Shown here: positions 22,594 to 27,300 of the stretch, piece by piece
How the letters are laid out: every line of letters starts with the position of its first letter
Position numbering within the stretch: position 1 is the stretch's first letter
Assembly: GCA_963702425.1 (NCBI GenBank)
Contig: CAVPCQ010000032.1
Coordinates: 32,001 to 96,000, forward strand
Direction of reading: 5' to 3'
Origin: an uncultured Acidobacteriota bacterium
Lineage (GTDB): Bacteria > Acidobacteriota > Polarisedimenticolia > J045
Length of the DNA: 64,000 nucleotides
Notes under the pieces: model-generated
What the model was told of the DNA's origin: nothing
Seen by the model: only the letters and a program-made list of their open reading frames with translations
Database searches by the model: none
Position numbers and translations under genes: made by a program

Positions 22594-23583
22594 ATGACCG
22601 AGAAGCTGAGGGTCTTCGTCGCGTCTTCGTCCGAGCAGCTCGGGGTCGCCGCCGAGATCGCGCAGTCGATCAACCGGTCGAAGGCGTTCCACGCCCAGCC
22701 CTGGGACAAGGAGGTCTTCGAGTTCAGCAAGGCCTACATCGAATCGCTCGAGCAGGAGCTCGATCGCGCGGACTTCGCCATCGTCGTACTGACCGCCGAC
22801 GACGCGGGCAACGTCCGGGGGCGCAAGGTGAGCCTGCCGCGCGACAACGTGATCTTCGAGCTGGGGTTGTTCGCCGGCTGCCTCGGCCGGAGCCGTTGCT
22901 TTTTCTTCGTCGATGCGGACTCAGCCACGAAGATCGCATCCGATCTGTCCGGCGTGGAGCCGGTCACGTTCCGGCGCGGCAGGCCATCGGGAGGGGTGGA
23001 CCTGAAGACCCGGATTGGCCAGGTCGCCGAGCAGATGAAGAAGGCCGGGCCGCGGTCGAAGCCCTCGCGGGCGGCACGCGAGGCGCGGGAGTCGCTGTGG
23101 CGGTTCTCGACCCGGTTCTCGGGCCATTGGTGGGAGCGGATCCGCAGCGGCGAGGACGACAGGTCCGCCCTGAGCTATCTCACCGTCACCGTCGACGAGC
23201 TGACGAACACGCCGAAGATCAGCGGCAAGGTCTTCGGCCTCGTCGGCGAACGGCTGGCGGACTGGTCGACGGTGACTTCGGGCGTGTTGCTGTCGGAACA
23301 GCCAGCACAGGTGCATTACCGATGGGAGGGCGAGCACCAGGATGCCCACGGGCAGACCTACGGCGGCCACGGCATCATCATCCTCGAGGATGACGAGCTG
23401 ACACGGGGCGAAGGGTGGTTCTTCGACACGAACTTCGCACGGGTCTCGCAGAACGCCGTCACGCGCGTCAAGCACTTTCGCGTGTATCGCTGCTCGCCCG
23501 GCGAGGTAGAAACCATGATGGATACCACGTCGGACGCCGCCCGTTCGCTGATCGCGGACCGGCTGCAGAAGCTGCGGGGCTAG
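22594..23583 (+). CDS. CAP12/Pycsar-type TIR protein with C-terminal beta-barrel-like domain
   Basis: RVFVASSSE, ADFAIVVLTADD, PRDNVIFELGLFAG.LGR.RCF, ASDLSG; beta-rich C-terminus. Confidence 0.85.
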   Translation: MTEKLRVFVASSSEQLGVAAEIAQSINRSKAFHAQPWDKEVFEFSKAYIESLEQELDRADFAIVVLTADDAGNVRGRKVSLPRDNVIFELGLFAGCLGRSRCFFFVDADSATKIASDLSGVEPVTFRRGRPSGGVDLKTRIGQVAEQMKKAGPRSKPSRAAREARESLWRFSTRFSGHWWERIRSGEDDRSALSYLTVTVDELTNTPKISGKVFGLVGERLADWSTVTSGVLLSEQPAQVHYRWEGEHQDAHGQTYGGHGIIILEDDELTRGEGWFFDTNFARVSQNAVTRVKHFRVYRCSPGEVETMMDTTSDAARSLIADRLQKLRG

Positions 23584-24983
23584 CGTCCCGCCTGCGCCGC
23601 GAGCCGCTCCGCCTTCGCCGCCCGCTCCGTGTCGCCGGTGCTGCGGAACAGGACCGCGATGTTGTTCATGAGCTCGGGATTCCGCGGGTCCAGGAGGGCG
23701 GCGTCGACCAGCTCCTGCGCGATCGACCGAAGGGCTGCCTGCTCGAGCGGGATCCGGTCGTAGATCAGCCCGACGTCGATCGGCGCGAGACCGCGCGGCC
23801 CCGCCTCGACGAACGCCTCCGGTCCGTCGGGCACGCCGGCCGGGCGCTTGATACGCCCCTCCCGCACCCCCTGGCGGAGGGAGTTCAGCTCGGGCCGCGT
23901 GCTCTCGTAGGCGGCAGTGAAGCCCTCCATGAGCAGGCCGGAGACCTGCGCCATCGCCTGGGCATTGGCGGCCGCGGCACCGCCCGGCGGGAGACCGGAG
24001 CCCTGAGAAACGCTGCCTGCGGAAGGCCTCGTCCTGCGGGCGGACCAGCGCCGCGTGAGGTCCAGCGAGTACCCGACTCGCTCCGGGTCGCCGAGCGCAT
24101 CGAGCGCCAGCAACTGATCCCGCACCGCCAGCGCTTCCGGCGTGAGGCTTGGTCGCTCGGCCGGAACCACACCCCGCGCCATGTACCCGATCAGGCCGCC
24201 GGCGAACGCGGCCGCGTCGAGCAGGCGGTCGCACTCCCCCGGGCAGGAGGGGCTCCGCACCCAGCCGCCCGGTCCGCCCCGCACCTGGAGGAAGACCCAG
24301 TCGCCCTGGTGCCGGACGACGGTGTACACCTGCTCCTTCGGGAGGCGGCCGACGACGGCTGCGGCTTCGTCCGGCGAGCCGCGCAACTCATCGAGGCGCT
24401 GGGCCGCGCGGCGGATCGTATCGACCGCCCGCGGCGGCAACTGCAGTCGTTGGATGGCGAAGCGGTTCGGCCGGAGCCGCGCCAGGAGCGGCGCGCCCCC
24501 CATGTCCTGGGGCAGCCGCAGCCGCCACGTGAAGCGGGACTCCACCGTCTTGGGCGGAACCTGGGCATAGGTGTCGACGACCAGCTCGCCGCGCGAGCGG
24601 GAGATCCGCCCCCAGACCGCGAGGGCCACGTCCTGACTGGCCACCACCCGTTCCACCTTGTCGAAGTAGCCGAGGTCTCCGGGCTTCTTCGGCGACAGGT
24701 CGCCCTCGTAGCGCAGGACACCGAGCGACGACGCACTGTTGCTGGTGAGAATCGTCCGCTCGACGAGGGCAGCCACCTGATCGCCCAGGCCGGTCCGGTC
24801 GGGATCCTCGTAGGCGAACACCGCCACCCGGAAGGCCGCCCCGGGGATGTGCCGTGGGGGAGTCTGTCCCAGCTCGAGCAGCTTCAACTCGGCGTTGGCG
24901 TCCACGCGCATCCCCGCCTCGACGGGAGCGGCGGCACCGAGGCCGACCAGGAGGGCCGCCGACAGCGCGAGCGCCCGTCGCAC
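23580..24983 (-). CDS. Exported protein with SH3-like domain and C-terminal TPR-like helix
   Basis: Signal peptide VRRALALSAALLVGLGAAAPVEA; LRGSP..VGRLP..GDWVFLQ..GWVR (SH3b-like); DPRNPELMNNIAVL. Confidence 0.7.
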   Translation of the reverse strand: MRRALALSAALLVGLGAAAPVEAGMRVDANAELKLLELGQTPPRHIPGAAFRVAVFAYEDPDRTGLGDQVAALVERTILTSNSASSLGVLRYEGDLSPKKPGDLGYFDKVERVVASQDVALAVWGRISRSRGELVVDTYAQVPPKTVESRFTWRLRLPQDMGGAPLLARLRPNRFAIQRLQLPPRAVDTIRRAAQRLDELRGSPDEAAAVVGRLPKEQVYTVVRHQGDWVFLQVRGGPGGWVRSPSCPGECDRLLDAAAFAGGLIGYMARGVVPAERPSLTPEALAVRDQLLALDALGDPERVGYSLDLTRRWSARRTRPSAGSVSQGSGLPPGGAAAANAQAMAQVSGLLMEGFTAAYESTRPELNSLRQGVREGRIKRPAGVPDGPEAFVEAGPRGLAPIDVGLIYDRIPLEQAALRSIAQELVDAALLDPRNPELMNNIAVLFRSTGDTERAAKAERLAAQAGR

Positions 24984-24984
24984 G

Positions 24985-26211: not shown

Positions 26212-26226
26212 GGCCGGCCCCCGGCC

Positions 26227-27300
26227 CTACGCCTGCAAGGCCGCCGCCACGAGCGGGCGAGCGGCGATCAGCGCGATGGGAATCCCCTCGTTGTAGGCCG
26301 GCTTCGGTTCCTTCGGGTCCCCCGAGTGATGGAGCGCGATCAGCCCGAAATCGCCGTCGAAGACCGGAGACCCCGAGGAGCCCGGCTCGGTCGGCACCGT
26401 GTAGCGCAGGCGCCTTCCGCCGCCCGTGACCTCGAGCGTTTCCTCCATCCCGAGGGCGAGCTTCATCGGGAGCGTCTTCGGGTGCTGCAGGATGGCGACG
26501 ACCCGCTTGGCCGGGTAGTCGACGGGCCCCGAGGGGACCGGCACCCATCCGCGCGCCTCCTCGGCACTCGAACCCTTGCCGACCGGCTCGGCCCCCACCG
26601 ACTCCGCGAGCCGCAGGAGCGCGTAGTCGAGCTCTCCTTCCGCCGGGTCGTGGGGCTTGGGATCGGCTACACCGTCGACGTCGCTCGGCGGGGCCGCGTC
26701 CACCTTCCATTCGGAGGCGAGCGTCACGACACGGCCCATCGAGATCACGCTGCCCGTCTCGGAGAGCTTGTGGTCGAAGCGGCACGACCAGCTCGACGCG
26801 AGCGACGAGCCACCGAGGAGGTCGTCCACCACGTGGTAGTTCGTGAGCACGAGATCCGCCCCGACGAGGAAGCCCGTCCCGCGGCCTTCGCCGTTGCGGT
26901 CGACCCGGCAGACGCGCCACTCGGCGCGCGTCAGCTCGGCGCGCCACTTCGCGACGTCGAGGAAGGTCGCGTTGCCGCTCACGACCTTCTCGAGCGTCGA
27001 CGTCTTGACCGCCGCGGCGGAGGAGAGTCCGACCAGGGCGGCGAAGTCCTGGAGGGCGGGGTTGCCGGAGTTCTGGTTGCGCCCCCCGCTCACGATCTCG
27101 GCGAGCCGCCCGTGCGCCTCGGCCCACGCGATGAGATCGAAGGCGTTCTGCTCGAGGCTTTCGCTCTGTGCCGTGATCGTGGCGAGGTTCTGGTCGAGCT
27201 GGTCGGAGACCATGCGCCGGAGCTCGCTCGCGCTCGGAAAAGCCGCGAGGAGCGCCTGGCGCAGGTCTTTCTTCTGCATTCCGTTGAGCGTCAGAGGCAT
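26227..27300 (-). CDS. Effector-associated domain EAD1 + trypsin-like serine protease
   Basis: LNGMQKKDLRQALLAAFPS..L..M...L..NL..I..LIAWAEAHG...NSGNPAL (EAD1); GTGFL, LTNYHV, LDYALL, TEPGSSGSP, IALHH. Confidence 0.9.
   Translation of the reverse strand: MPLTLNGMQKKDLRQALLAAFPSASELRRMVSDQLDQNLATITAQSESLEQNAFDLIAWAEAHGRLAEIVSGGRNQNSGNPALQDFAALVGLSSAAAVKTSTLEKVVSGNATFLDVAKWRAELTRAEWRVCRVDRNGEGRGTGFLVGADLVLTNYHVVDDLLGGSSLASSWSCRFDHKLSETGSVISMGRVVTLASEWKVDAAPPSDVDGVADPKPHDPAEGELDYALLRLAESVGAEPVGKGSSAEEARGWVPVPSGPVDYPAKRVVAILQHPKTLPMKLALGMEETLEVTGGGRRLRYTVPTEPGSSGSPVFDGDFGLIALHHSGDPKEPKPAYNEGIPIALIAARPLVAAALQA

Follow-up and report, generated by a model that had tools for sequence, protein, structure and literature searches.

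In the EAD-coupled conflict systems of bacteria, as described by Kaur et al. (2020, PMC7159879; see also PMC8195603), EADs are proposed to serve as adaptors: one copy is found on an effector such as a trypsin-like protease and a second on the core component encoded by the adjacent gene, and in related cores the effector is fused directly, which leaves a constant module with a variable head. The core of these systems is a nucleoside triphosphatase (NTPase) of the STAND, MoxR-vWA or GAP1 GTPase type. The same work describes EACC1 (system 4), in which a single-pass component, sometimes fused to EAD1 or EAD2 and accompanied by a peptidase gene, was proposed to be a membrane sensor. Here we analyse three minus-strand genes, A, B and C, in a window of 64,000 nucleotides (nt; the whole stretch of DNA studied, to which all coordinates refer) from contig CAVPCQ010000032.1 of an uncultured Acidobacteriota bacterium. 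A encodes an EAD1-trypsin, B a bitopic (single-pass) receptor with an EAD1-like head, and C a secreted partner. As in the described systems, the trypsin effector and the core in the adjacent gene each carry an EAD, and related cores carry a fused effector (TIR); unlike them, the core is a bitopic receptor with a secreted partner rather than an NTPase, and the two EADs are of different subfamilies. B resembles the EACC1 component, with which it was compared by description only, in its single pass, its EAD and the peptidase gene beside it, but the EACC1 component has a short transmembrane domain, small extensions and a caspase-type partner, whereas B has about 280 residues of folded domains predicted to be periplasmic and a conserved secreted partner.

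We propose, with moderate confidence, that A, B and C form a membrane-spanning conflict module, serving defence or programmed cell death, in which clustered EAD heads would activate A. This receptor-adaptor-protease reading is supported by comparative genomics, because B and C are paired, the head of B is swapped together with the presence of A, the head is homologous to EADs, and A and B are the only EAD pair in their genome.

The pairing of B with C is conserved. A search of 5.8 billion clustered proteins returned 28 homologs of B, and contigs of genomes and metagenomes yielded 13 loci of the B family. A C homolog directly follows B in all seven related loci that have more than 50 nt of downstream sequence, the remaining 6 of 13 ending within 32 nt of the B stop codon. 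From locus to locus, both proteins lose identity to their window counterparts in parallel (B/C, 73/72, 60/63, 40/44, 37/38 and 34/31%). Pairing and domain content are direct observations, as is the variation of the head of B, which is TIR, EAD or absent. Most homologs (23 of 28) carry a precomputed N-terminal TIR and match the C-terminal ~70% of B at up to 73% identity, and all 11 TIR-bearing rows of the B alignment keep the Glu of a TE[LM] motif, which we take to be the catalytic Glu of TIR NADases. Two further homologs have the same layout of 408 amino acids (aa) at 88-91% identity, and were counted as EAD-type because of that length and because they cover the whole query. Of the three without a listed TIR (P0025, P0027 and P0028), alignment showed that P0027 and P0028 begin with a short hydrophobic N-terminus and that P0025 is N-truncated. 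Three distant homologs at 32-37% identity (L015:1433-2401, L017:1802-2842 and L018:2-1069) have a signal or anchor sequence only and keep their C partner. Gene A was found upstream of EAD-type B only, in the window and in an 88%-identical metagenome locus (L009), and no match to A was found in the nine loci of other types with at least 480 nt of upstream DNA. If the pattern of Kaur et al. (PMC7159879) is applied to these genes, TIR would be the fused effector and A the split one.

The original prediction, made from the DNA letters of the window, had called residues 1-85 of B EAD-like, and profile comparison bears this out: hhalign aligned the B-head family with the EAD1 domains of 120 A homologs at 96.6% probability (E 5.7e-10, 74 columns). 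Homology thus places the head, at the level of sequence, in the EAD1-like clan. With residues 1-100 as the query, a phmmer search of the full library brought up 38 representatives at E<=1e-3; the domain is N-terminal in nearly every one, on proteins of 108-1415 aa. A domain scan of the 37 outside B's own cluster found six with Trypsin_2, two with NACHT, one with nSTAND1 and one with VMAP-C, together with weak matches to EAD1, EAD5 and EAD7. The head also has these attributes in common with the EAD class: it is a small, non-enzymatic helical domain at a terminus, its relatives are fused to effectors and core components, a second copy is in the adjacent gene, and related cores have a fused effector. 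A transmembrane helix follows the domain immediately (at about residues 97-134) in 9 to 11 of the 37 relatives, the number varying with the treatment of multi-pass and weak calls; EAD-transmembrane-ectodomain is therefore a recurring layout, and EAD-bearing bitopic proteins may form a wider class. The same EAD subtype precedes a transmembrane helix and a PASTA ectodomain in P0112, and TPR in P0100, these ectodomains being unrelated to that of B. The AlphaFold2 (AF2) model of the head has five helices at low confidence (predicted local distance difference test, pLDDT, 47-69). A PDB sequence search with the head gave no match, and Foldseek with the whole B model was dominated by its beta-sandwich, returning only transthyretin/CnaB-like sandwiches.

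We searched the organism's own 5.1-Mb genome (91% complete; 40,447 six-frame open reading frames, ORFs) for EADs. The B-type model recovered B (E 1.2e-35), A (1.1e-6) and one marginal partial match (0.033), and the A-type model recovered A (1.1e-35), B (0.023) and nothing else. A and B are thus an exclusive EAD pair in this genome, and by these model searches A is the only possible partner there for the head of B.

The three genes lie at 23580-27300, packed in the order A-B-C with spacers of 15 nt (A/B) and 1 nt (B/C), and all three had been correctly anticipated by the original prediction, including the EAD1-trypsin nature of A. Gene A matches Pfam EAD1 at 65.3 bits (cut-off 24.2), which places it within that family, and Trypsin_2 at 63.4 bits. 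Its first-start ORF reaches 27351 and encodes 374 aa, the numbering used below for A; the N-termini of homologs (consensus MxLxLxGxQ) and the sequence agree, however, on the ATG at 27300 as the true start codon, from which A has 357 aa, and this is the same end coordinate as predicted earlier. The catalytic triad (H173, D242 and S326) is invariant in a 38-sequence family alignment, and a profile search of PDB sequences gave V8/glutamyl endopeptidases as the nearest solved relatives (E 4e-10). Triad and V8 similarity place A among the S1B glutamyl-endopeptidase-like proteases, with a possible specificity for Glu. Genes of this EAD1-trypsin type are widespread, with 917 matches to A. The linker between the domains contains STLEKVV (residues 118-124), at which a cleavage site after Glu had been predicted. 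The motif is real and conserved across the A family, where it takes the form L-E-[KR]-[IVF]-[VI] and lies on the N-edge of the protease domain. Of 38 family sequences, 33 have the L, 31 the E and 30 either K or R. It aligns with LEAVI of a nearby 262-aa protease; what the alignment gives is a family-wide motif, and the cleavage site in it is putative. N-terminal processing of A at this Leu-Glu motif is plausible by analogy with V8-type enzymes, which we take to be processed at their N-termini.

Gene B encodes, in order, the EAD1-like head, a transmembrane helix, a transthyretin-like sandwich and an ectodomain combining an alpha/beta module with helices. The hydrophobic stretch at the position of the transmembrane helix is kept in all members of the family alignment. 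The sandwich scores 31.8 bits against CarboxypepD_reg, marginally under the cut-off of 32.3; Foldseek confirms the fold (5aq0_B, E 2e-4, TM-score 0.73 on the target) and homologs of B carry PF13620, which assigns the sandwich to the CarboxypepD_reg/transthyretin-like fold. The C-terminal ectodomain is modelled with confidence (pLDDT about 90), and all 17 aligned sequences keep its four cysteines (C218, C276, C370 and C395). It gave no Pfam match and no PDB sequence match, and the profile of the whole B family matched TIR and transthyretin entries alone in the PDB. Atlas feature searches with the periplasmic parts of B and C returned CsgG/LpoB/TPR and CsgG+SH3 clusters at 0.82-0.92, which we treat as leads only. 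We infer that B has its N-terminus inside and its C-terminus outside the cytoplasm because TIR occupies the same place in its relatives, because B and C both have conserved cysteines and because C has a signal peptide. The distant relatives with just a signal or anchor sequence at the head position also fit this orientation, and the earlier claim of an inner head and an outer ectodomain agrees with the TIR position, the four invariant cysteines and these headless relatives. B is rare: 3 of 401 reference genomes of the phylum have a match, one being its own genome, and the other two match in the sandwich region only.

The first-start ORF of C begins at 25103. C probably starts at the GTG at 24983, one base past the TGA stop of B, which gives it the signal peptide MRRALALSAALLVGLGAAAPVEA, and a hydrophobic N-terminal leader is present in 27 of 27 aligned family members. 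The model (pLDDT 88) comprises an N-terminal alpha/beta domain, an SH3-like barrel and a TPR-like tail. The barrel, of five strands at residues 199-243, matches SH3_4 as well as SH3_3 (26.3 bits, under the cut-off of 27), many C homologs carry precomputed PF08239 or PF06347, and W229, G240 and W241 are invariant in the family, as are two cysteines; this fits the predicted signal-peptide protein with an SH3b-like domain, SH3_3 falling just short of its threshold. In the tail, a DPRNPxLLxNLAVLF block is conserved, and the C-family profile matches designed TPR proteins among PDB sequences (E 3.7e-6). Foldseek with the C model returned nothing at E<=1e-3, the best match being TolB at 0.012. A module common to C and the ectodomain of B was considered and rejected at sequence level (hhalign probability below 1%). 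The next gene past C encodes a CAP12-type TIR protein and is convergent with it, so that the transcription unit ends at C; a search of 22000-30500 found no promoters or terminators beyond chance. Coordinates are collected in Table 1.

Table 1. Positions of the A-B-C genes, their domains and two context genes in the 64,000-nt window
Feature	Coordinates	Strand	Basis
Gene A, EAD1 + trypsin-like (S1B-like) serine protease	26227-27300	-	Pfam EAD1 E 7.1e-18; Trypsin_2 E 4.9e-17
EAD1 adaptor domain of A	27034-27291	-	PF19955, residues 21-106
LEKVV motif, N-edge of the A protease domain	26980-26994	-	family alignment
Gene B, bitopic receptor, 408 aa	24985-26211	-	Pfam, alignment, AF2 model
Helical head of B (EAD1-like; predicted to be cytoplasmic), residues 2-84	25960-26208	-	Pfam and hhalign
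Transmembrane helix of B, residues 102-124	25840-25908	-	AF2 helix 102-124
CarboxypepD_reg/transthyretin-like beta-sandwich of B, residues 135-197	25621-25809	-	PF13620, Foldseek
C-terminal part of the B ectodomain (alpha/beta module and helical hairpins), residues 205-405	24997-25599	-	model, alignment
Gene C, secreted partner, 467 aa from GTG at 24983	23580-24983	-	sequence, homologs, model
Signal peptide of C	24915-24983	-	sequence reading, MRRALALSAALLVGLGAAAPVEA
SH3b-like barrel of C	24252-24386	-	SH3_3, SH3_4, model
TPR-like C-terminal helices of C	23586-23741	-	profile search, alignment
Context: 262-aa trypsin-like protease	17824-18612	-	Trypsin_2 E 5.9e-22
Context: bacterial gasdermin	18726-19541	+	PADLOC bGSDM E 3.8e-79

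According to the receptor-adaptor-protease reading, B and C would be a constant sensor. B would sit in the inner membrane with its N-terminus in the cytoplasm, and its transthyretin-like and cysteine-bearing domains would face the periplasm, acting with the secreted SH3/TPR protein C. The head of B would be the variable output, with TIR fused directly in most relatives; in the EAD form the head would be an EAD1-clan adaptor and the effector would be split off as the EAD1-trypsin A, which probably docks on the inner tail of B. A periplasmic or envelope event would alter the assembly of B with C, the EAD heads would gather A molecules, and their proximity would activate the protease, possibly with processing at the Leu-Glu motif at the protease-domain edge. 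The topology, the binding of EAD to EAD, the trigger and the substrates of A are all predicted parts of this scheme.

Several results weigh against it. The direct match of the B head to Pfam EAD1 reaches 15.2 bits, below the cut-off of 24.2, and runs end to end (residues 2-84 on profile positions 5-88 of 90). By sequence, the EADs of A and B are of different subfamilies, the profile alignment giving 19% identity and BLASTP 31% over 49 residues, and EAD copies in adjacent genes tend, according to the account of Kaur et al. (2020, PMC7159879), to be mutual closest relatives. For the predicted binding of the two EADs, a complex prediction with A residues 15-115 and B residues 1-95 scored 0.00 against a mark of 0.32, which weighs neither way. 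The EAD form has four carriers (the window, L009, P0001 and P0002), which share at least 88% identity, and the triad is known from this one lineage only; the carriers being near relatives, the co-occurrence of A with an EAD-type B counts as a single evolutionary event. The positive-inside rule is ambiguous for B, with arginines on both flanks of the transmembrane helix. Distant B-C pairs do without a cytoplasmic domain, and B and C may therefore have a periplasmic role of their own. PADLOC 2.0 gave no match to B or C at E<=1e-3, and the defence role is a prediction from the genes. The receptor, adaptor and protease pathway of the original prediction is thus partly supported: it retains the EAD head, the exclusive pairing of A with B and the TIR/EAD swap that goes with A, and is weakened by the difference in EAD subfamily.

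Some of the same observations would suit a different role for B and C, as an envelope housekeeping or structural pair, for instance associated with peptidoglycan or the outer membrane, whose head is an anchor or regulator and to which A is adjacent by chance or for an unrelated reason. The distant pairs that have a signal or anchor only (L015-L019, P0027 and P0028) would be expected of such proteins, the weak CsgG/LpoB/TolB-like and SH3/TPR leads come from their periplasmic parts, and C has more family members than B (64 versus 28 matches). What makes this role distinctly unlikely in our view is that B proteins have heads of the TIR or EAD-clan type, each of which is typical of conflict systems, that the genome has no EAD-clan genes besides A and B, which lie next to each other, and that the surroundings are defence-like, since the neighbours both here and in TIR-type loci are defence genes, including TIR proteins and patatin. 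The region is also accessory, because its DNA (16000-35900) was not found in a genome of the same genus (G313) except for two matches of 37 and 59 bp. We consider it very unlikely that A, B and C are instead accessories of a contractile injection system, B being an adaptor like CisA and A a processing protease or cargo. A cluster of injection-system genes does lie directly upstream of A on the minus strand (29542-49162) and, after a further ORF of 914 aa, ends 71 nt before the start of A. CisA of Streptomyces is likewise a bitopic membrane protein with its N-terminus inside, is encoded beside a contractile injection cluster and is required for firing (PMC12237407). No injection-system gene was found, however, among the 10 flanking ORFs scanned in three TIR-type loci (L007, L014 and L011, with flanks of 5-8 kb), and B and C thus occur elsewhere without such genes. 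The domains differ as well: as described in PMC12237407, the C-terminal domain of CisA is substrate-binding-protein-like and its N-terminus is unstructured, and B differs in both. EAD1-trypsin genes, moreover, are widespread and are tied to conflict systems in the account of Kaur et al. (PMC7159879). A possible parallel, a carboxypeptidase-regulatory-like domain in CisA, was dropped, such a domain having 0 occurrences in PMC12237407.

A bacterial gasdermin 5 kb from A-B-C raises the question of what A cleaves. One proposal, which extends the best explanation and is not exclusive of it, is that A, activated on B when B-C senses an envelope cue, would cleave after Leu-Glu in both the 262-aa protease and the gasdermin, and perhaps in the patatin too, leading to pores; we regard it as unlikely, though not negligibly so. 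Beside the gasdermin lies the 262-aa trypsin-like protease, a minimal enzyme without a sensor domain, and the motif GG.{0,2}LE[AK]V occurs five times in 3402 crude ORFs (1.55 M aa), three of the five being in this protease, the gasdermin and the patatin. That these three have a rare motif in common lends support to Glu-directed cleavage as the shared logic of that unit, and suggests that one Glu-directed protease could act on two effectors and itself. The copies, at 17824-20780, read GGLEAVIG in the protease, GGAALEAVAA in the gasdermin (19 aa from its end) and GGGLEAVRS in the patatin (27 aa from its end). A has Leu-Glu at the equivalent protease-edge position and glutamyl endopeptidases as its closest solved relatives, and gasdermin cleavage in the Lysobacter system requires a trypsin-like protease that bears a CARD (PMC10312443). 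The motif of A is TLEKV, however, and not GGxLEAV, and the gasdermin has a protease of its own next to it, to which A is 29% identical. Gasdermin and A-B-C are also separate transcription units, with four genes (patatin, pYEATS-TIR, TIR and CAP12-TIR, the last convergent with C) and a change of strand between them, and the TIR-type relatives need no gasdermin. The earlier claim that A leads to the gasdermin was therefore not upheld, Leu-Glu and proximity making for a speculative link. It is likewise decidedly doubtful that B-C is a family of bitopic immune receptors that sense a periplasmic event and signal across the inner membrane by clustering a head, be it a TIR enzyme or an EAD adaptor, and that the EAD form in this genome starts a Glu-specific cascade at Leu-Glu sites which unlocks the minimal protease, the gasdermin and the patatin as an extrinsic cell-death pathway.

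With respect to known gasdermin systems, A resembles the proteases of CARD-NLR/type II gasdermin loci (Lysobacter, PMC10312443; LypABC, PMC13236601) in being trypsin-like with an N-terminal helical recruitment domain, which in those systems is needed for effector activation, and a second trypsin-like protease and a gasdermin are nearby in both cases. The window differs in that it has no STAND/NLR-like ATPase, the sensor would be a membrane receptor and the genes are not one operon; no NTPase was found between 17824 and 30116, which sets the locus apart from the type II gasdermin/CARD-NLR class. No CARD likeness of EAD1 emerged, the profile of the A family giving no match for its EAD1 region below E 0.3 among PDB sequences. 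The likeness to death receptors in the original prediction, which can be extended to Toll-like receptors, holds for the layout, with an extracytoplasmic sensor, one transmembrane helix and, on the inner side, an adaptor (TIR in the relatives, EAD in B) that would recruit the effector or be it. It does not extend further: the orientation is reversed (N-terminus inside), the ectodomains are unrelated, the bacterial TIRs probably act as enzymes and not as scaffolds, a Death fold of EAD is conjectural, and the analogy is one of layout only.

To our knowledge, most characterised bacterial defence sensors are cytoplasmic, and very few are thought to read envelope events. B and C have no family-specific Pfam model, and our literature searches found no description of the B-C family, with the proviso that related architectures may appear in the supplementary tables of Kaur et al. 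B-C looks like an undescribed bacterial defence sensor. What is new is a conserved pair with a variable head, the concept of EAD coupling being known already and periplasmic sensors having been predicted in some conflict systems (10.1101/2023.09.22.558884). The family offers a natural domain swap, in which the output of a sensor pair (about 72% identity) is a fused TIR in one case and would be, through paired EADs, a separate protease in the other. It makes testable both whether EADs are recruitment adaptors and whether bacteria have outside-in immune signalling with a layout comparable to Toll-like and death receptors, and the gasdermin, the minimal protease and the patatin with the rare GG..LE[AK]V motif are candidate substrates.

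The surroundings of related loci have features of their own. TIR-type B-C pairs lie beside further TIR genes at L007:5181-6536, L007:14919-16151 and L014:3867-4892, L007 having a TIR-TPR-S gene and a patatin and L014 two ThsB-like TIR genes. These neighbours echo the TIR, pYEATS-TIR, CAP12-TIR and patatin genes of the window, which could reflect a functional link or just a defence island. The window gene at 20872-21603 encodes a prokaryotic YEATS domain fused to TIR (pYEATS E 4.3e-25, TIR_2 E 3.5e-12). Short metagenome contigs of near relatives, from sediment and freshwater, include one that bridges A and the 914-aa ORF and one that bridges C and CAP12-TIR; they provide no independent support. 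The injection cluster contains DUF6519, Tail_P2_I, Baseplate_J, AAA+WHD, Pvc16_N+TIG and sheath protein genes. The 914-aa ORF (27372-31404) has no Pfam match and ends in a lysine run. Over its initial ~190 codons it overlaps the DUF6519 ORF in the 3' part of the latter, and the C-terminal ~110 residues of the DUF6519 ORF are Arg-rich and look out of frame. This overlap may be due to a frameshift or to a single longer gene.

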